In this document: positions 43,217 to 53,027 of the stretch, one piece after another | Position numbering within the stretch: the stretch's first letter is position 1 | How the letters are laid out: each line of letters opens with the position of its first letter | Source: Trueperaceae bacterium | GTDB taxonomy: Bacteria > Deinococcota > Deinococci > Deinococcales > Trueperaceae | Length of the DNA: 64,000 bases | NCBI GenBank assembly: GCA_034521815.1 | Contig: JAXHLW010000013.1 | Location: 832,001-896,000 of the forward strand | Reading direction: 5' to 3' | Program-made: the position numbers and the translations under genes | Notes under the pieces: model-generated | The model's input: only the letters and a program-made list of their open reading frames with translations | Told to the model about the DNA's origin: nothing | Database searches by the model: none

Positions 43217-43268
43217 TCTGAACGTACGGTCTGAACGTACGGTCTGAACGTGCGGTCTGGACGTGCAG
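43217..43268. repeat. 13-bp tandem repeat TCTGAACGTACGG x4, degenerating rightwards
   Basis: TCTGAACGTACGG TCTGAACGTACGG TCTGAACGTGCGG TCTGGACGTGCAG. Confidence 0.85.
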
Positions 43269-44681: not shown

Positions 44682-47600
44682 GTGCGCATCGACCGCCTGA
44701 CGCTGGCCGGCTTCAAGAGCTTCGGCGATCGCACCACCGTCGAGTTCGCGCCGGGCGTGACGGCGGTCGTCGGTCCGAACGGCAGCGGCAAGTCGAACAT
44801 CCTGGACGCGCTTCGCTGGGCCACGGGCGGTGGCCGCGCCAGCGAGTTCCGCGCCGACGAGAAGACCGCGCTGATCTTCCACGGCGCGGCAGGGAAGAGG
44901 CGGCTGGGCCGGGCCGAGGTGGAGGTCGAGCTCCACGCCGGCGGCAAGCGCCTGGTGATCCGCCGGAGCCTGGACCGCGACGGCGTCACGAAGCTGACGC
45001 TGAACGGGAAGAACGCCCGCTTCCTGGACCTCGACGAGGAGCTGGCGGGAAGCGGCCTGGGCCGCGGCAGCTTGGCGGTGATCGGTCAGGGCGAAGTGAG
45101 CGGCGTCCTGATGGCCGATCCGAGCCGGCTGCTGGCCTACGTGGCCGAGGCGGCCGGCGTCGCCCGACTGTCGGGCCGCCGCGAGCAGACCGAGGGGCGA
45201 CTCGATGCGGCGCGAACGCACCTCGACCGTCTCGAGGAGAAGCTGGCCGAGGACGGCGAACGACTCGAGTCGCTCCGGCGCGACGCGAACGACGCCCGTC
45301 GCCACGACGAGCTGTCCGCCCGGGCGCGGCGACTGCGGCTGACGCTGGCCGCCGCTCGCGTGGCGTCGCTTCGCAAGGAGGTCGAGGGGCTCGAGACCGA
45401 GACCGCCCGGCTGGAGGCCGAGCTGGCGGACGGTCGGGCGCAGCTGGCCGACCTACGCGAGGCCCTGCAGCGGTCCCGGGCCGCCGACTCGGCGGCGGAA
45501 GCCGAGCATCGCGAGGCCACCGCCGCGCACGCCAGGGCCACGGCCGAGCTGCGCGTCGCCGAGCATGCGCTGGAGGCCGCCACGACCCGCGCCGCGGACC
45601 TCGAGCGTCAGCGCGAGCGCACCGCTGCCGAGCGCGACGCGTTGCTCCGGCAGGGCGCGCCCGACGCGCCGTCCGACGATCTGGACGCGTTGCGCGCCGA
45701 GGCCGAGCGAGCGGACGCCGCCTACCGGGCGGCACGCGACGAGCGCGAGCGCGCCGAGGCCCGGGCCGAGGCGGCCCGAGCCGAACGCGAGCAGCTCGAG
45801 GCGAGCGCGGCCAGGGCCGCCAAAGCCGCCGCCGAGGCGGACGCCGAGCGCGACGCGATCCGCCGCCAGCGCGAGGAGGTCGACGCCCGCCTGGCCGAGC
45901 TCGCCGCGACCCCGGTCGACGTCGCGAGGGGCCACGAGGCGGACGAATCCGAAGCCGACGCACAGGGGTCGGGGCTCCGGAACGCTCGATACCGAGGCGC
46001 ACGCCCGAAGCGGCGGAGCGCGCGGCGGAGGAGACCCTGCGCGACGCTCAGGCGGCCCTCGACGCGGCGCGCGCCCGCCTGGAGAGCGCCCAGGCCGCGC
46101 ACGCGCGCGAGGCTGCCGAGGCCCGGGCGCTGGACCGGGCGGTCGAGCGCCAGCGCGCCGCCTTCGCCGCGCGCAGGGGGTACGCAGAGGGTCCCCGCCA
46201 CGCCCTGACCAGCGGCATCGCGGGCGTCCTGGGCTCGCTGGCCGACGTGATCCGTGTTCCACCCGACCTGCAGGAGGCGATTCAGCTGGCGCTGGGGCGG
46301 CGCGCGGAGTACGTGCTGGCCGAGGACGCAGGCGTAGCCCGGCGCGTCCTGGCGCACGTCCGTGCCGCTGGAGGCTGGGTCACCCTGCTTCCGCTGGACC
46401 TCGTCCACGGCACCCGAACGCGCCTGGATCCCGAGCTGGCCTCGCAGCCCGGCGTCGTCGGGGTGGCGTCGGAGCTGGTGGAGACGGAGGACCGTTTCGC
46501 CGCGGCGGTAGGTCAGCTGCTCGGCGGCACGGTGCTCGTCGAGACGACCGAGCAGGCGACGGCGATCGCGCGTCGCTTCTCGAGGCGCCCCCGCCTCGTG
46601 ACGCTCGAGGGCGACGTGGTCGAGCCGGGCGGAGCGCTGTCGGGCGGCCGCCGTCAGGGACGAAGCGTGCTGGTGGGCGCGGCGGCCGACCTCGAGGAGG
46701 CGGAAGCGCAGGCAGCGGAGGCGAACGCCGCCGAGCGGGCGGCCGGCGAAGAGGTCGGCGCCGCCCAGGCCTCGTTCCGGACCGCCCGCGACCGCGTCGA
46801 GGAGGCGACCACGGAGGTCCAGCACGCCCGGGCGGCCGCGGCACGCTGGCGGGAAGCGCGGGCCGCCGAACGGCACCTGCGCAGCGACCTCGAGGCGCGG
46901 CGCGAGCGCTTGGCCGAGGCCGAGCGTCGGCTTCCCGAGCCACCGGACACGATCGCGCCGGAGCGCTTGGACGAGGTGCGCGACGCCGACGCGCACGCGC
47001 GAACGACGCTGCAGGCCGCGCGCGCGGCGGAGGCGCCGGCCTCCGAGGCGGCGTCGGCTGCCGGGCGGACGCTGGCCCTGGCCGAGGAGCGCCGCCGCGC
47101 GCACGCCGCGGCGCAGGCCCGCTACGACGAGGACGTCGCTCGCAGCGAGGCGCTCGGGCGCGAGCTGGAGCGCCTGGCGGAGGCGCTCGAGTCCGGCTGG
47201 GCCGCGGCGCGCGACGCCGAGCGACGGGCCGTGCAGGCGCGCGCATCGCTGCCCGAGGACGCCCCTGCGACCGAGGAGGCGCGCGAAGACGCCCGCGCAC
47301 GGCTGCGCGAGGCGGAGGAGGCGCTGGAGTCGGCCGCCGAAGCCCAGAGCCGACGGGCCGAGGCCCTGGAGCACGCCCGCGTGCAGGCGGCCCGGCGCGA
47401 GGCGGCGCTCGAGGCTGCCGAGGCCGAGCACGACAGCTTTCCAGCCGGCCTCGAGCCGCTGGACCTGAATGATCGGGCGGCGCGCGCCGAGCTACGCGAA
47501 GCCGAGGCCGAGCTGGAGCGTCTGGGCGCGGTGAACCATCGCGCCGCCCAGGAGCTCGAAGGCCTCGAGGACGACCACCTCGAGCGCGAGCGCGAGGCGC

Positions 47601-48166
47601 GCGACGCCCGCGACGCCGTCGAGCGTCTCGGCTCGACGCTCATCCGGCTGGACCGCGAGACGACGTCGCGCCTGACGGCCGCGATCGCCGGCGTGCGGAC
47701 CCGCTTCGTCACGCACTTGGGCGAGCTGTTCGGACCGGACGGGGACGGCGACGTCGAGGCCGATCTGGAGGAGGGACGGCCCGTCGGGCTGCGCATCCGC
47801 CTGCAGCCGCCGGGCAAGCAGACGCAGGCGCTGGGGCTGCTGTCCGTCGGCGAGCGGACGATGGGCGCGCTGGCGTTCCTGTTCGCGCTGATGGGCGAGG
47901 AGCAGGGGGGACGCGGCATGCCGGTCGCGGTGCTCGACGAGGTGGACGCGCCGCTGGACGAGGCCAACATCCGTCGCTACCGGACGTTCCTGGAGCGCAT
48001 GGCGTCGAACGGCACGCAGTTCGTGCTGATCACCCACCAGAAGGCCACCTTCGAAGTCGCCGACGTGCTGTGGGGCGTGACGACCGAGCAGGGCGTCAGT
48101 CGCGTGTTCTCGATCCGCAAGGAGTCCGACGAGCCGCGGGCGGTCGCGAGCACGGCGCCGTCGTAG
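44682..48166 (+). CDS. smc: Chromosome segregation protein SMC, indels near 45975-46010
   Basis: GFKSF, GPNGSGKSN, IGQG, coiled coils, hinge (LVTLEGDVVEPGG), LSVGE signature, LDEVDAPLD, ITH. Confidence 0.92.
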
Positions 48167-48169
48167 CGG

Positions 48170-48288
48170 TCCGACCGCGACAGCGCACGCATCGACAGCG
48201 CACGCATCGTCCACGTCGCGCGCCTCGCCGTCCGACTCGCGACTGCGCGCGCATCAACGGCGCGCGCATCGTCCACGACCGCGCGCTT
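48170..48288. repeat. Imperfect 61-bp-period tandem duplication, each unit with an internal 15-bp doublet
   Basis: GACAGCGCACGCATC x2 + GTCCACG, then GACTGCGCGCGCATC / AACGGCGCGCGCATC + GTCCACG. Confidence 0.75.
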
Positions 48289-49773
48289 CAGCGCTCACCC
48301 AGTCCGTCGTCCCGGTCCAGCCGTTCGGCTTCAACGCTCGCCGTCGTCGCCGTCCGCGCTTCAGCCGTACCACCCGCCAAATCGTCGGCGATGGCGCGCC
48401 GCTCGGCACGGCTGCGCTTGCTGTAGCGGCGCGTCGTCTGGAGGTTCGCGTGCCGCAGCAGGTCGGCGGCGGCGTCGATGCCGTGCCGCCGCGCGACCTC
48501 GGTCCCGGCGGTGTGGCGCAGGCCGTGCACCTCGCGCCCCTCGTACCGGACGCCGGCCCGCTCGCACAGCGCTCGCAGCCGCAGCCGCGCCCGCCCGAGT
48601 CCGAAGCCCAGCACGCGGGCGGCCGGGTCGGGCCGGGTCCGGGCGGATCGCGGCCAGCGCTGCCAGGAGCGCGCCCTGCGGCCGGGACGTCCCGCACCCG
48701 GCCGCCCCTTGCCGACGACGCGCGCGCAACACGCCTTCGCGAGCGTCCACCTGACCCCAGACGAGGCCGGTCGCTTCGGCGTTGCGGAGGCCCGCGGTCG
48801 CGCACAGGTGCACGAACGCGGCGTCCTTGGGCCCGGCCGCGATCAGCAGGCGGGCGATCTCGTCGGCGCGGTACGCCTCGCGCTTGTCCTCGGGCGCGAC
48901 GCCGTCCACCGGCGCCGTCAGGTCGCGGAACGGATCGGCGTCGGTCGCGCCGACGTGGCGCAGCGCACGGTAGAGCGCCTTGCCGGCGGCCAGCTTGACC
49001 GCCACCGTCGCCGCGGCGCGCGGACCGGTCTCGGTGCGTCCCCGCAGCCGTCGCTCGATCGGCTCCGTCTCGAGCCGGATCAGCCAGATCGCGCCGGCGT
49101 CGGGCGACGGCCGCAGCAGGTTCTCGTCCTGCCACGCCTCGACCAGGTCGCGGACGCCGCGACGGTAGGCGTCGCGCGTCCGCTCGCTCATGCCGGCGCG
49201 TTTGCGACCGCGCGTGGCCAGCACGTAGTGCGTGAGGTCCCAGAGCGCGTCCGGGTCGCGCTCGTTCGCGGCGCGCACGGCCCGGACGCGCCGCAGCTCG
49301 GGCGACAGCCGCGCCCAGCGCACGGCGGCGTCCACCGCGTCCTCGGACGCCACCTCCAGCTCGGTGGCGGCGCTGAGGCGGACCTCGCCGCTGGCCGCGA
49401 GCTGGACGAGGTCGTCGACGCCGCTGCGGAACAGGGCGTGCACGCGGACGCGGCTGACCCCGAGCTCGCGTCCGAGCTGGGCCAGCGACGCCGGCTCGGA
49501 CGAGGCGCCCAGCGCGCGCCTGAGCACCTCGGCGCGGCGCGGCTCGAGCCGGGGGGCGAAGGCGCGCAACAAGGTGAACGCGGCGGCCAGCGCAGCCCGG
49601 TCGCCGAGCACCTCGCGCACGCTGCGCGCACTGCGGTCGGCGCGCAGCAGACGGAGCGACAGGTCCGCCGCCGAGGTCGCGTCGGTGCTCGCGCCGGCCT
49701 CGTGAGGGTCGGACGACGCTCGGGGCGTCGCGCCAGGCGATTCGTGCGGCGTTTCGTTGGACGTCGAAGCCAT
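48288..49773 (-). CDS. Tyrosine recombinase (Deinococcota Xer-like) with N-terminal sigma70 r4-like HTH; indels at about 48630-48725
   Basis: SERTRDAY, AGLRNAE, VVGKG (shifted frame), HGLRHTAG, LLRHANLQTTRRY: R-K-H-R-H-Y catalytic set present across frames. Confidence 0.85.
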
Positions 49774-49776
49774 GCC

Positions 49777-49825
49777 GTATGTTAACCCCATACCGACAAG
49801 AGACATTATCGGATTGTTAACATGC
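49777..49825. promoter_or_regulatory. Nested palindromic dif-like/operator site overlapping the recombinase -10 box
   Basis: GTATGTTAAC-CCCATA-CCGACAA-GAGACA-TTATCGG-ATT-GTTAACATGC. Confidence 0.6.
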
Positions 49826-49922
49826 AGATGGCGAAGCGAATCCGGCGATTCGATCGTGCGCACCGCGGTCCCGGCGTCGGCCTTCGGACCGCTGCACGGT
49901 CGGACCGACCGTATGATGAACC

Positions 49923-52900
49923 GTGGCCGACCATGGACCGGTCTCGATTCATCACCGTCCACTGGCCGAACTCGCGCGCGACGTCCGCACGAACGCCATC
50001 TTCACGATCGACGTGGGCGGCACGATCGGCTCCTGGAACGAGGGCGTGAAGTCGTTGCTCGGTTACGACGAGCACGAGTTCATAGGGATGCCGTTCGGCC
50101 TGCTCTTCACAGGCGAGGACCGGGACGCCGGCGTCCCTCGCCGCGTGCTCGACGAGGCGATCGCCCAGGGCGAGGCTCAGGGCGAGCGATGGCACGTCAA
50201 GAAGAGCGGCGAGCGCTGTTGGATCAACGGCCTGGTCACCACCGTTCGTGACGAGCACGGCCAGCCGTGCGGCTTCGTGAAGATCGTGCGGGACCAGACC
50301 GACACGATGCGGGCGGAAGGTCGCCTGTACGAGAGCGAAGAACGGTTCGCCAAAGCGTTCCGCAGCAGCCCCACCCCTCTCGCCATCATGCGCCTGCCGA
50401 CCGGCGAGCTGACCGACCTGAACGAAGCGTTCACGCGCAGCTTCGGACGGCCGCACGACGACCTTGAAGGCATGACGCTCGCACGGCTGCTGCCCCACGA
50501 TGCCGGCTACGTGGCGAAGGACATCCTGGACGACCTTCACAGCGGTCGTCCGATCCGGCGCGAGGCCACGTTCGGTCGAACCTCGGACGGCACGCGGCAC
50601 GGCACCTTCGCATTCGAGCCCGTCGTGATCGCCGGCGAGCCGCACGCGGTGATGTCGGTGCACGACGTGACCGACCGGCGCGCGGCACGCGACGACGTCG
50701 AGCGGCAGAAGGCGATCGTAGAGGGCATCCTCGCGACCCTTCCCGGCGTGTTCTACATGGTCGAGGAGAGCGACCCGCGAAGGCTGGTCCGCTGGAACGA
50801 CGAGCTCGAGCGCGTCACCGGCTACACCGCAGCCGAGCTCATCGGCATGCGGGTCGCGAAGCTCGTCGTCGAGGAGGACCTCGGCGCCAGGGACATCGTG
50901 GCCGGCCTCGCAGGGCGACGCGTCTCCATCGAGGCGCGCTTGCGCTGCAAGGACGGCACCCTCGTTCCCTACCTGTTCACCCTTCACCGCGCCGTGCTGC
51001 CCGACGGTCGATACGTCGTCGGCGTCGGGCTGAGCATCGAGAAGCAGACACGGGCCCAGGACGCCCTCGTTCGCCGTGCCCGCCAACAGGCGGCGATCTC
51101 CGACCTGGCGGAGCGCCTGCTCGAGACCACGGAGATGCACGACGCGCTCGAGCGGACGATCGAGGTCGTCGGCGACGTTCTAGGCGCCACGAACGTCCAC
51201 GTGCTCAGACTGGAGGACGACGAGCTCGTGGTCGCCAGCGCCAGCGACGTCCAGCTCGCCCAGCGGCGCGCCGAGAAGCTCGCCTCGGGGGCGGACGACG
51301 GCCTCCGAGCGGTGATCCCGGCCGCGGACGGCCGGTACGGCCTGATCGAGGCCGTTCTGGCCTCGGAGAACGATCGCGACGACGAGCAGAGCCGCTTCCT
51401 GGACACGATCGCGTCGCTGGTCGGAAGCGCCGCGGAACGGTACCGGCTTCACCGCCGCCTCGCGCACGCAGCCGAGCACGACCGGCTCACGGGACTCCCG
51501 AACCGCACGGTGATCGAGGTCCAGCTCGAGAACGCCATCGAGCGTGCCGCCCGTGTGGACGGCAAGGTCGCGGTCGCGCTCCTCGATCTGGACCGCTTCA
51601 AGACCGTGAACGACTCGCTCGGCCACTCGGCCGGCGACGACCTCTTGGCAGGCGTCGCGGACCGGCTTCGTGAGAGCGTGCGCGGAATGGACACCGTCGC
51701 GCGCCTCGGAGGGGACGAGTTCGTGATCGTCCTCCCCGAGATCGTCGACGAGGCCGAAGCGGCCCACGTCGCCGAGCGCGTCCTGACGTCGTTCGAGCAG
51801 CCGTTCGTCGTCAGCGGTCGCCAGCTGACCATCGCCACCACGCTGGGTATCGCGCTCTTCCCCGACGACGGCCAGACGGTGGACGCGCTGTTGCGGGCCG
51901 CGGACGGCGCGATGTACATGGGCAAGACGAGCGGTCGTGGCACCTACCGCTTCGCGACGGCCGAACGTGGCATGAAGGTCGGCGAGCGCCTCGAGCTCGA
52001 ACACGACCTTCGCGAGGCGCTGACGTCCGGACAGCTCGCCCTCGCCTATCAGCCGCAGATCGCGCTCGCGACCGACCGCATCGTCGTGGTCGAGGCCCTG
52101 GTCCGCTGGCACCACCCCACTCGCGGTGTGCTCTTGCCCGAGGCGTTCCTTCCGCTGGCCCACGAGATCGGGCTCGCCGCCGCGATCGACGAGTGGACCG
52201 TCCGCGAGGCTTGCGCACGGCTCCACGCGTTCGACCAGGCGTTCGACCACGCGTTCGGCCACACGTCGACCTCTCCCCTTCGGATCGCCGTGAACGTCGC
52301 GCCCCGGCACCTCGTTCAGCCCTCGTTTCCCGAGCGCATGGGCGTACTGGCCGGGGAGGCGGGCGTGTCCCCAGGGCGGATCGAGATCGAGGTGGACGAG
52401 TCCGCGCTGCTTTTGGACCGCGAGGCCGTCGCCCGTCACCTACGTGGCGTCGTCGATCACGGCTTCCGGCTCGCGCTGGACGACTTCGGGACGGCGTACG
52501 CGCCGGTGACGCTGGTCCGCTCCCTCCCGTTCGAGCGGCTCAAGATCGACGAAACCCTCGTCCACGACCTGCTTCCTGGTGATCACCAGGCGACGCCGCT
52601 GGCTGGGATCCTGATCGAGCTCGGCGCGCGTCTCGGCCTCGACGTCGTCGCCGAAGGGGTCGAGACCGCAGGGCAGCGCAGGGCGGTCGAGCGGCACGGC
52701 TGCGGCTACGCGCAAGGGCGACTGATCGCGGATCGCGCTATCGGGCGAAGAGCTCGCGCGCGTTCCTGCGTTCGACGGCGTGAGCGACAGGGCGCGCCGA
52801 TCCCTCGACTCCCGATCGACGACGCCGGCAGCCTCGCCATCAGTTCAGCTCGTCCAGCGTCAGGCGGAAGCTCGGACCGAACGTGTCCAGGAACGCCCGC

Positions 52901-53027
52901 ACAGCCGGGTCGGGATGCGCGTCGAGCTCGGCCCGGAGCGTCTCCTCGGCCCGTCCGAACTCGGCGTTGCCCGCCTTGTGCTCCTCGACGCACTTCAGGT
53001 AGGCGCAGATCTTGTCCGCCGCCTTGA
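49923..53027 (+). CDS. PAS-PAS-PAS-GAF-GGDEF-EAL c-di-GMP signalling protein; the tail after about 52735 is probably a frameshift artefact
   Basis: PAS (SWNEG, VKIVRD), HDRLTGLPNR, DLDRFKTVND, RLGGDEF, VEALVRW, LDDFGT, VVAEGVET; TATGAT box before GTG. Confidence 0.9.
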   Translation: MADHGPVSIHHRPLAELARDVRTNAIFTIDVGGTIGSWNEGVKSLLGYDEHEFIGMPFGLLFTGEDRDAGVPRRVLDEAIAQGEAQGERWHVKKSGERCWINGLVTTVRDEHGQPCGFVKIVRDQTDTMRAEGRLYESEERFAKAFRSSPTPLAIMRLPTGELTDLNEAFTRSFGRPHDDLEGMTLARLLPHDAGYVAKDILDDLHSGRPIRREATFGRTSDGTRHGTFAFEPVVIAGEPHAVMSVHDVTDRRAARDDVERQKAIVEGILATLPGVFYMVEESDPRRLVRWNDELERVTGYTAAELIGMRVAKLVVEEDLGARDIVAGLAGRRVSIEARLRCKDGTLVPYLFTLHRAVLPDGRYVVGVGLSIEKQTRAQDALVRRARQQAAISDLAERLLETTEMHDALERTIEVVGDVLGATNVHVLRLEDDELVVASASDVQLAQRRAEKLASGADDGLRAVIPAADGRYGLIEAVLASENDRDDEQSRFLDTIASLVGSAAERYRLHRRLAHAAEHDRLTGLPNRTVIEVQLENAIERAARVDGKVAVALLDLDRFKTVNDSLGHSAGDDLLAGVADRLRESVRGMDTVARLGGDEFVIVLPEIVDEAEAAHVAERVLTSFEQPFVVSGRQLTIATTLGIALFPDDGQTVDALLRAADGAMYMGKTSGRGTYRFATAERGMKVGERLELEHDLREALTSGQLALAYQPQIALATDRIVVVEALVRWHHPTRGVLLPEAFLPLAHEIGLAAAIDEWTVREACARLHAFDQAFDHAFGHTSTSPLRIAVNVAPRHLVQPSFPERMGVLAGEAGVSPGRIEIEVDESALLLDREAVARHLRGVVDHGFRLALDDFGTAYAPVTLVRSLPFERLKIDETLVHDLLPGDHQATPLAGILIELGARLGLDVVAEGVETAGQRRAVERHGCGYAQGRLIADRAIGRRARARSCVRRRERQGAPIPRLPIDDAGSLAISSARPASGGSSDRTCPGTPAQPGRDARRARPGASPRPVRTRRCPPCAPRRTSGRRRSCPPP

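Follow-up and report, generated by a model that had tools for sequence, protein, structure and literature searches.

The 64-kb stretch of a Trueperaceae genome analysed here (positions 832,001 to 896,000 of contig JAXHLW010000013.1; the window) contains on its minus strand a gene for a Xer-type tyrosine recombinase (48288..49773) with an N-terminal domain resembling region 4 of sigma-70 factors and, immediately upstream of this gene, a conserved 44-bp element (49779..49822) built like a recombinase core site. We consider it likely that in this Trueperaceae genus the recombinase resolves chromosome dimers and that the 44-bp element is its dif-like site. The domain architecture of the protein, the conservation and uniqueness of the site and its position at the replication terminus are observed and carry this assignment; since the element lies upstream of the gene and at the terminus, the locus is read as a dimer-resolution module rather than as an orphan recombinase. 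Positions given below are those of the whole window unless contig C13 is named, and G000 denotes the genome of the window (13 contigs, 83.5% complete, 2.63 Mb, 71% G+C). Homologous recombinases are called fused when they carry the sigma-4-like domain and plain when they do not.

The dif-like candidate is found on the same strand as the gene and ends 5 bases before its ATG. Read on the gene-sense strand from 49822 to 49779, it is composed of TGTTAACA-AT-CCGATAA-TGTCTC-TTGTCGG-TATGGG-GTTAACAT, in which GTTAAC boxes flank a pair of inverted arms. These arms, CCGATAA and TTGTCGG, surround the 6-bp spacer TGTCTC and form the core of the element (49793..49812, minus strand); when lengthened to 10 bp they agree at 7 of the 10 positions. 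A 6-bp spacer between inverted arms is how tyrosine-recombinase core sites are laid out. In the gene-proximal box GTTAACAT (49779..49786, minus strand) the hexamer TTAACA starts 17 bp from the core centre, and its TTAAC is invariant in the genus alignment; the same alignment of genus loci delimits the gene-distal box TGTTAACA (49815..49822, minus strand), an 8-bp palindrome. In all eight aligned genus loci the element stands as a conserved island, with 25 invariant columns, between flanks that cannot be aligned, and it is also present in G009 and G003. It lies next to the start codon in 9 of the 10 genus genomes that have the gene, the exception being G003, where it is about 1 kb away. The element is single-copy in G000, whose 2.63 Mb contain GTTAAC seven times, two of them within the element. 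The DNA of about 1 kb between element and gene in G003 (C103) has a lower GC content and may have been inserted at the site; its other end showed no further copy of the site. In G005, two copies of gene plus element occur on two contigs (C5:868500-873800 and C10:1-6800), with spacings to the next genes that differ by about 1.2 kb; 6% contamination is listed for this genome, and the copies may stem from two strains.

The same layout recurs in front of related genes. Plain genes of the same family (G019, G020, G015) have CTGATAA-N6-TTATCAG directly upstream, and 6-bp-spaced palindromes also precede plain genes of two other families, for instance ATATTCCCGTTAA-N6-TTAACGGGAATAT in G030. Among fused genes outside the genus, perfect 9-bp repeats with a spacer of the same length were found upstream in G048 (CCCACCTAA-GGCTGA-TTAGGTGGG) and in G080 (CCCACCCAA-GGATAC-TTGGGTGGG). 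A search of 81 family genomes for an 18-base core pattern, up to 3 mismatches being allowed, gave matches that did not exceed the level of a reversed-pattern control, and none of them had TTAAC flanks. As judged from these comparisons, the sequence of the site is specific to the genus, and the layout is the part that is conserved. No classical dif was found in G000 with a degenerate 16-base core of the classical consensus and up to 3 mismatches, a motif that may not fit this phylum, and a looser arm-spacer-arm dif pattern gave no match in G000 either.

The element is located at 881,779-881,822 of the 1.9-Mb contig C13. Polar 7-mers and 8-mers that had been chosen only from the outer parts of C13, and were then followed through its untrained middle, change strand between 855 and 884 kb in all 24 runs (mode for k=7, 879,904), and the most polar words resemble the FtsK-orienting polar sequence (KOPS) GGGNAGGG, as printed in a preprint. 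Counted in G000 without training, GGGNAGGG occurs 94 times on the plus and 50 times on the minus strand to the left of the element and 47 and 87 times, respectively, to its right; the corresponding counts for GGGGAGGG are 31 and 11 on the left and 4 and 29 on the right, with the last plus site at 868,571 and the first minus site after it at 882,736. In G005, the counts of GGGNAGGG are +33/-15 on the left, where 14 plus sites in a row immediately precede the element, and +11/-23 for the contig beginning with the second copy of gene and element. The complete chromosome of G048 (3,260,398 bp), a fused representative of another genus, gives +43/-28 on the left and +15/-43 on the right for the same word; there the cumulative maximum of GGGGNAG, at 1,627,816, falls about 3 kb from the element at 1,630,768, and the GC-skew maximum lies at about 1.59-1.60 Mb. 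The strong polarity of GGGGAGGG in G000, at 71% G+C, can be set against a preprint that describes KOPS in D. radiodurans as abundant and not polarised (10.1101/2025.03.15.643453).

A second line of evidence comes from complete chromosomes, in which dnaA was located by TIGR00362. In all five of them (two fused, three plain, from three families) gene and palindrome lie 47-50% of the circle away from dnaA, the element-to-dnaA fraction being 0.4999 in G048, 0.4986 in G026, 0.4927 in G020, 0.4898 in G061 and 0.4694 in G030; the distances from the antipode of dnaA are 0.3, 3.1, 21.2, 43.8 and 69.5 kb. The five chromosomes differ in their core sequences. A gene for an FtsK that includes a gamma domain (85 bits) is present in G000. 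Several observations weigh against placing a dif-type module at the terminus, or against its generality. Polar 6-mers scatter, with switch estimates from 863 to 1187 kb, and the plain GC skew of C13 peaks at about 610 kb and stays flat to about 960 kb, so that by itself it does not point to 881 kb. The genomes compared are related and their counts are therefore not independent. Finally, three sampled loci of family f2 (L123, L124 and L130, from G033, G025 and G037) lack a 6-bp-spaced palindrome; these loci are only the best homologues among 2-7 copies per genome, and either the layout of the module may not hold in f2 or the palindrome may be found at other f2 paralogues.

The element could instead be a mere operator or promoter through which the gene regulates itself, the recombinase serving another role, for example as a domesticated integrase. 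It abuts the start codon and extends over the probable promoter region, a plausible -10 stands 17 bp from the hexamer in two lineages, and sigma-4 domains are promoter readers. An operator, however, need not sit opposite dnaA, as the locus does in five of five complete chromosomes, nor at the point where polar words converge, as in three genomes. The 6-bp-spaced inverted arms are, moreover, the layout of a recombinase core site and also occur before plain relatives, no second copy of the element that could act as attachment or inversion partner is present in G000, and the neighbours are housekeeping genes. We regard this explanation as quite improbable.

If the locus is a dimer-resolution module, two molecules of the recombinase would bind the inverted core arms through their core-binding and catalytic domains, and FtsK, steered by the polar G-rich words that converge on the site, would pair the two sites of a dimeric chromosome at the septum. 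Strand exchange across the 6-bp spacer would then separate the chromosomes, while the tethered sigma-4-like helix-turn-helix (HTH), placed on a -35-like hexamer, would either anchor the protein at the site or shut off its own promoter. Catalysis at the candidate site and dependence on FtsK are expected from this scheme. Only one other full tyrosine recombinase is encoded in G000 (C13:206000-208100); it is of the plain type, is 42% identical to the fused one and has no palindrome upstream. A tRNA-Asn is found near it in G000, and in G005 its orthologue (L131:7755-8762) has as neighbours a second integrase, hsdM, hsdS, an ankyrin-repeat gene and a tRNA-Pro. This setting suggests an island rather than a Xer partner, and the second recombinase may alternatively belong to a recombinase-linked type I restriction locus.

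The recombinase itself would have about 460 residues if it is read like its intact orthologues; in the assembly it is divided between two long frames. An open reading frame (ORF) at 48361..49962, with its ATG at 49773, contains the N-terminal extension, the core-binding domain and the box-I arginine (GLRNAEA), and a second one in another frame (48288..48614) encodes HGLRH, LRHANL and RRY. The core-binding, SAM-like domain (48955..49197, minus strand; residues 193-273) is recognised by Phage_int_SAM_1 with 25 bits (cut-off 22.3) and by the secondary structure of the model, and a disordered linker and a W..L...RR helix stand N-terminal to it. The catalytic domain (48291..48900, minus strand) contributes the arginine of GLRNAEA, the lysine of the GKG region, HGLRH, LRHANL and RRY, and Phage_integrase (PF00589) matches the C-terminal piece of the window protein with 29.3 bits (cut-off 27.1) and 24 of 24 relatives, the best E-value being 1.4e-20. 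The initial annotation had reported a full catalytic set across small indels, and indeed all of its residues (R, K, H-x-x-R, H/W and Y) are encoded, spread over three frames in the window; in the 24 relatives they are in one frame and invariant. The matches of the model in Foldseek include XerA, XerD, XerH and lambda Int, and the best NCBIfam and fold matches of the recombinase are Xer-type enzymes. Plain relatives start near W..L...RR, which bears out the earlier statement that the Xer-like core of this group begins near a W motif.

The N-terminal helical domain with its sigma-70 region-4-like HTH occupies 49306..49674 (minus strand; about 100 residues) and was delimited by Pfam, a profile of structures in the PDB, AlphaFold models and fold searches. 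The peptide on which the fusion had first been proposed is real and comprises residues 75-121 counted from the ATG at 49773, its coordinates having been 3-6 bases off; the HTH with the recognition helix GVSRVRVHALF lies at about 49411-49551. Sigma70_r4 (PF04545) aligns with residues 75-119 of the window protein at an E-value of 1.6e-4. It also recognises 15 of the 24 family members with E-values of 0.01 or lower, the best being 5e-6, and two distant fused members, P0029 and P0030, exceed its cut-off with 31.6 and 29.2 bits. A profile made from nine N-terminal domains and compared with solved structures ranked region 4 of RpoS, SigB, RpoH and SigA at the top, with RpoS first at an E-value of 0.0011. 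AlphaFold predicts six helices, with a predicted local distance difference test score (pLDDT) of about 90 or more over residues 1-95, the model being all-helical save for two single bridge residues, and a disordered linker of about 17 residues between this domain and the core-binding domain. When the isolated domain was submitted to Foldseek, chains of sigma region 4 made up nearly all of the top 50 rows (among them 1ku7_A, 4g6d_A and 3n97_D), the match to 3n97_D having a TM (template modelling) score of 0.88 and a root-mean-square deviation (rmsd) of 0.9 over 48 columns. A domain of the type that binds arm sites in lambda Int, with a three-stranded beta sheet and a helix, was ruled out, the model of the N-terminal domain being all-helical.

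Other results weigh against this assignment. The score of the window copy for Sigma70_r4, 21.5 bits, is below the cut-off of 24.1, and membership of the whole protein family in Sigma70_r4 is borderline. The Foldseek E-values of the isolated domain are weak, between 0.07 and 0.5, with none at or below 0.001. In VIA, a search that is independent of Foldseek, the top row is not a sigma factor but a UPF0122 (YlxM-type) protein (Z 10.2, rmsd 2.9 over 78 residues), and the Z values for sigma-4 structures, 6.8-7.5, fall in a range that the tool calls common for helical domains. Taken together, sequence profiles and predicted fold nevertheless agree on an HTH of the sigma-4 type.

Plain relatives begin near W..L...RR, and the extension differs in length and sequence over its first 10-40 residues, which might mean that it is untranslated and that the true start is downstream, near that motif. 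Yet in ten genomes of the genus, and in other genera, an open frame starts at a conserved ATG or GTG next to the element, and the domain folds confidently in the model. Furthermore, since the differences between orthologues in this domain fall mainly at third codon positions (for example 7/3/17 and 24/19/75 at first, second and third positions), the frame is read as translated. Across 24 aligned members, conservation of the extension spans L-A-L-R-L-L-R to G-V-S-R-V-R-x-H-x-L-F-R. A downstream start, which the initial annotation had named together with the lack of an HTH match or fold as what would speak against a fusion, is not needed to explain the data and seems extremely improbable to us; Pfam, structure-profile and fold matches were all obtained, so that the proposed fusion of a recombinase to a sigma70 r4-like HTH holds for a domain that is conserved and, by its codon positions, translated.

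A clue to what this domain may read comes from the hexamer TT(G/A)AC(A/T), whose offset was measured on the gene-sense strand from the centre of the 6-bp spacer. TTAACA stands at +17 in eight of nine loci of this genus, the ninth, G002, having TTAACG. Both loci of genus g30 have TTGACA, at +18 in G048 and at +17 in G089, and in G080 TTAACT was read by eye at +16, with two mismatches to TTGACA. From metagenomes, one scan gave three loci, of which two, both marine (L136 and L137), were useful, and both have TTGACA at +17. None of seven plain loci has the hexamer, and the fused form is thereby linked to a hexamer at a fixed distance. On the far side of the core, an inverted partner box was found at -20 in this genus (TGTTAACA) and at -22 in G048 (TGTCAA). 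From these alignments, the -35-like hexamer 16-18 bp from the site centre is probably the candidate target of the sigma-4-like domain, and in the models the linker would be long enough for the domain to reach a site three to six bases past the arm.

In an alignment to region 4 of RpoS, the recognition helix places R-V-R-V-H-A at the positions of R584-E585-R586-I587-R588-Q589 of sigma-70. A review (PMC2613000) describes a contact of sigma-70 E585 with the C of the -33 G:C pair and a relaxed specificity at this position for the substitutions E585Q and R588H. The residues at 585 and 588, the readers of the third base in sigma-70, are V and H in this genus, with TTAACA, E and R in g30, with TTGACA, and E and H in G080, with TTAACT. 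A clean co-variation between helix and third base is contradicted by the metagenome lineage L136/L137, which has A and S (R-A-R-V-S) together with TTGACA.

This failure of a simple match between helix residue and third base counts against recognition of the hexamer by the domain, as does G061, which has a fused protein and no such hexamer at its locus. In addition, the hexamer could be no more than the -35 from which the gene itself is transcribed: TAGACT and then the ATG come 17 bp after it in the metagenome lineage, and TACCGT comes 17 bp after it in G048. In this genus, the two boxes were rejected as a sigma-70 promoter pair, the distance from the distal TTAACA to the proximal TAACAT being 30 bp, and no -35 sits 16-18 bp upstream of TAACAT; the proximal box is alternatively a candidate promoter element, with TAACAT as the -10 of a leaderless mRNA.

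The initial annotation had assigned the HTH either to arm-type sites or to self-regulation, and the data do not separate these two roles. A proposal that unites them, and which we offer as a tentative possibility, is that the domain binds the hexamer by dif and there competes with the housekeeping sigma factor for the gene's own -35, so that synthesis of the recombinase would be tied to occupancy of the site, and that the module is the dimer-resolution system of at least three families of Deinococcota. The domain could also contact a protein (RNA polymerase, FtsK or a second recombinase) and so couple recombination to another process. Region 4 of sigma factors is also a contact module, many of the fold matches being complexes with the beta-flap tip, WhiB or anti-sigma factors, and G061 has the domain and no hexamer. 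However, the arginines equivalent to R584 and R586 of sigma-70 are kept in most lineages, and the hexamer at a fixed distance goes with the fused form and not with the plain one, and we hold a role in protein contact to be unlikely.

A survey of the phylum Deinococcota for the same architecture, as had been recommended earlier, showed that a profile of the N-terminal domain matches 15 of 364 genomes: G000, 9 of the 10 others of its genus and five from three further genera of the family (G048, G089 and G101; G080; G061). It matches none of the 236 genomes of the other five families. The five fused proteins from outside the genus have 455-483 residues and a more canonical G-V-(S/T)-R-E-R-V. Within the genus, nine of the ten other genomes gave full-length matches that include the extension, several of them as open frames of 451-479 residues, and in other genera the query P0001 was matched only from about residue 112-157 on, apart from two stop-ridden matches that start at residues 39 and 79. 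Beyond these genomes, a word-based search with the first 150 residues returned 22 protein clusters of 437-501 residues, the named ones being Trueperaceae metagenome-assembled genomes, and a HMMER search of 1.84 billion representatives with the profile of the N-terminal domain gave 49 matches with E<=0.001, about nine of them strong, including proteins of 444-470 residues. Fifteen of the HMMER matches were scanned: all four proteins of 444-468 residues have Phage_integrase, with P0029 and P0030 above and P0033 below the Sigma70_r4 cut-off (20.5 bits) and P0032 without a match to this family, and the rest include fragments of sigma factors and other HTH proteins.

The tree of recombinase cores, built without loci L123, L124, L125 and L130, in which no ORF passed the motif filter, is a polytomy in which the clade of the family (100/100), the pair of genera g30 and g42 (82/86) and a plain group (81/85) are supported. 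A single clade of the fused forms is neither supported nor contradicted by this tree. The genus of the window is on a long branch (1.01), which calls for caution about long-branch joins. The sigma-4-type domain has been gained in four genera and in at least one metagenome lineage.

As assembled, the gene cannot give an active enzyme, and this is a point against its proposed function that has to be weighed with its relatives. A same-genus orthologue in G004 is intact and 93% identical to the window gene in protein and 89% in DNA. In comparison with it (blastn), the window contains one additional base at each of four positions, 48635, 48677, 48708 and 48720, and these shift the frame stepwise through the GKGGRVRDVP stretch, so that a reading of the window frame by frame yields the orthologue's VVGKG, GRVRDVP and ALLAAL stretches in turn; a further one-base difference, a gap, is located near 48370 in the tail. 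Three studies (X1, X2 and X3) supplied contigs of public runs that are 95-99% alike and lack the indels; these come from relatives, none being shown to be the source of the window, and the best of them contains 0.35 of the sampled words. One contig from each of X1, X2 and X3 adds TC behind 48349, C behind 48364 and C behind 48369, four bases that are missing at 48349..48369 in the variable C-terminal tail of the window gene, and X1 and X2 each have one contig that runs across the cluster of insertions with four gaps, single-base omissions being listed at 48630, 48673 and 48703.

Broken frames are not confined to the recombinase. When genes of G005 with at least 300 codons (n=97, from 400 kb) were mapped onto G000, 87 were found in a single frame and 10 rows were split. 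These correspond to 8 distinct places, smc included (a duplicated stretch of G005 makes two of the places count double, and another may be a tandem paralogue), so that about one long gene in twelve is broken in G000. In smc the assembly has 173 bases at 45957-46129 where G004 has 117 (residues 426-464), and the surplus of 56 bases, which is not a multiple of three and lies in the coiled-coil region, changes the frame. Several of the genes whose frames are split in G000 and not in G005 are found no more than about 20 kb from the locus; they include that of a 1322-residue protein at 864.8-868.7 kb and those at 872-873 kb and 897-898 kb; this clustering may reflect sampling, the DNA of G005 that was sampled being syntenic to G000:C13:862000-898200.

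Because close relatives are intact and genes are split in the assembly at this rate, the frame breaks in G000 are read as errors of sequencing or assembly, which they probably are. It might be argued, instead, that the family is functional elsewhere and that the copy of this strain has been inactivated by real indels, eight of which fall in the catalytic half. The only other full tyrosine recombinase gene of G000 is also split, into three frames and in the same part of the protein, and the 56-base stretch in smc, not a multiple of three, is absent from the orthologue. Nevertheless, apart from these indels the gene remains 93% identical in protein to an intact orthologue and has no stop or other lesion, up to 8 places are split among about 95 long genes compared, which speaks for a general error rate, and four insertions in 86 bases followed by four deletions in 21 bases look like a local problem of consensus; the contigs from three studies, 95-99% alike, do not show the indels. 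Decay of the gene is the less likely reading, and for this strain we judge it to be unlikely; in reality the window copy is probably intact.

With regard to the neighbourhood, smc (44682..48166, plus strand, itself split) converges with the recombinase gene, in agreement with the tail-to-tail arrangement that had been described, and a PAS-GGDEF-EAL gene (49923..53027) diverges from it. The absence of phage or insertion sequence (IS) genes nearby was likewise confirmed by a Pfam scan of 11 neighbouring ORFs, none of which matched such a family and 4 of which had no Pfam match at all; those scanned include YebC, DnaJ, a MerR regulator, an M20 peptidase, the PAS-GGDEF-EAL protein, HisRS and SmpB. 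An Rfam search of 48000-50500 found no known RNA at E<=1. A short tandem repeat with units like TCTGAACGTACGG is present at 43217-43252, with about two more copies than in G004.

Among known systems, the locus, which we read as a Xer/dif module of the single-recombinase type, is most easily compared with those that use one recombinase. The XerS/difSL system of streptococci and lactococci likewise has one recombinase gene beside its own site, at the terminus, with an FtsK gamma domain encoded in the genome. According to a review of Xer systems, xerS lies immediately beside difSL in one module, XerS has 356 residues, difSL is 31 bp long with an 11-bp central region, and the nearness of difH and xerH is considered a possible hallmark of single-recombinase systems (PMC5357621). 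Unlike XerS, the protein described here has the sigma-4-like domain and about 450-490 residues, and its spacer is 6 bp. XerH/difH of Helicobacter and Campylobacter resembles it in a site near the gene, in near-palindromic arms, in the fold of the core-binding and catalytic domains and in what would here, too, be a single recombinase, but XerH has no N-terminal HTH and is a distant match (5jjv and 5jk0; Foldseek E-value 3.6e-4, 15-16% identity). The XerC/XerD-dif system of E. coli and most bacteria is similar in its recombinase chemistry, in the 6-bp central region at the terminus and in the converging KOPS-type words; it differs in having two recombinases, with genes that are not linked to dif. 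Two intact orthologues, P0003 and P0004, score 62.5 and 57.1 bits with XerC (TIGR02224, cut-off 335), 41.4 and 35.3 bits with XerD (TIGR02225, cut-off 330), 49.9 and 50.1 bits with XerA (NF040815, cut-off 220) and 18.1 and 20.6 bits with XerS (NF003462, cut-off 267), and by these profile scores the recombinase falls outside each of the curated Xer equivalogs scored (XerC, XerD, XerA and XerS).

An additional N-terminal DNA-binding domain on a flexible tether before the core-binding domain is also a feature of lambda Int, Tn916 Int and CTnDOT-type integrases. The arm-binding domains of these enzymes read accessory sites beside the core. They consist of beta strands and one helix and belong to integrases of phages and integrative and conjugative elements, as stated in a preprint on the classification of tyrosine recombinases (10.1101/542381). 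Unlike such arms, the domain described here is all-helical and sigma-4-like, and it is part of an enzyme of the chromosomal terminus. With region 4 of sigma-70 (PF04545) and with UPF0122/YlxM (1xsv) it shares the fold and the motifs L-x-x-R-x-x-x-V-L and G-V-S/T-R-x-R-V; in contrast to sigma factors it lacks regions 2 and 3, and the equivalents of E585 and R588 are V and H in this genus. The TnpR subgroup with the helical N-terminal DUF3701, as presented in the same classification (10.1101/542381), also joins a simple recombinase to a helical, probably DNA-binding N-terminal domain, but this is another domain family and is linked to transposons, and no relation to it was seen in our searches.

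In the phylum concerned, the Xer subgroup was not found in Deinococci according to that classification, and class-specific enzymes may substitute for it (10.1101/542381). A study of FtsK in D. radiodurans leaves open which recombinases and dif sites are at work (PMC9764985), and Kono et al., in their paper on dif prediction, mention neither Deinococcus nor Thermus in the main text (PMC3025954). A literature search, outside of which most subscription journals lay, found no account of such a module or of a sigma-4-fused Xer protein. The locus is a concrete candidate for dimer resolution in at least three families of the phylum, and complete genomes of relatives carry it. Tyrosine recombinases would have an accessory arm of a new kind if the domain reads a -35-like hexamer by dif, and this would also be a simple natural case of a sigma domain reused outside the initiation of transcription. 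Compared with the known single-recombinase modules, the parts that are new are the sigma-like arm and the phylum in which the module is found.

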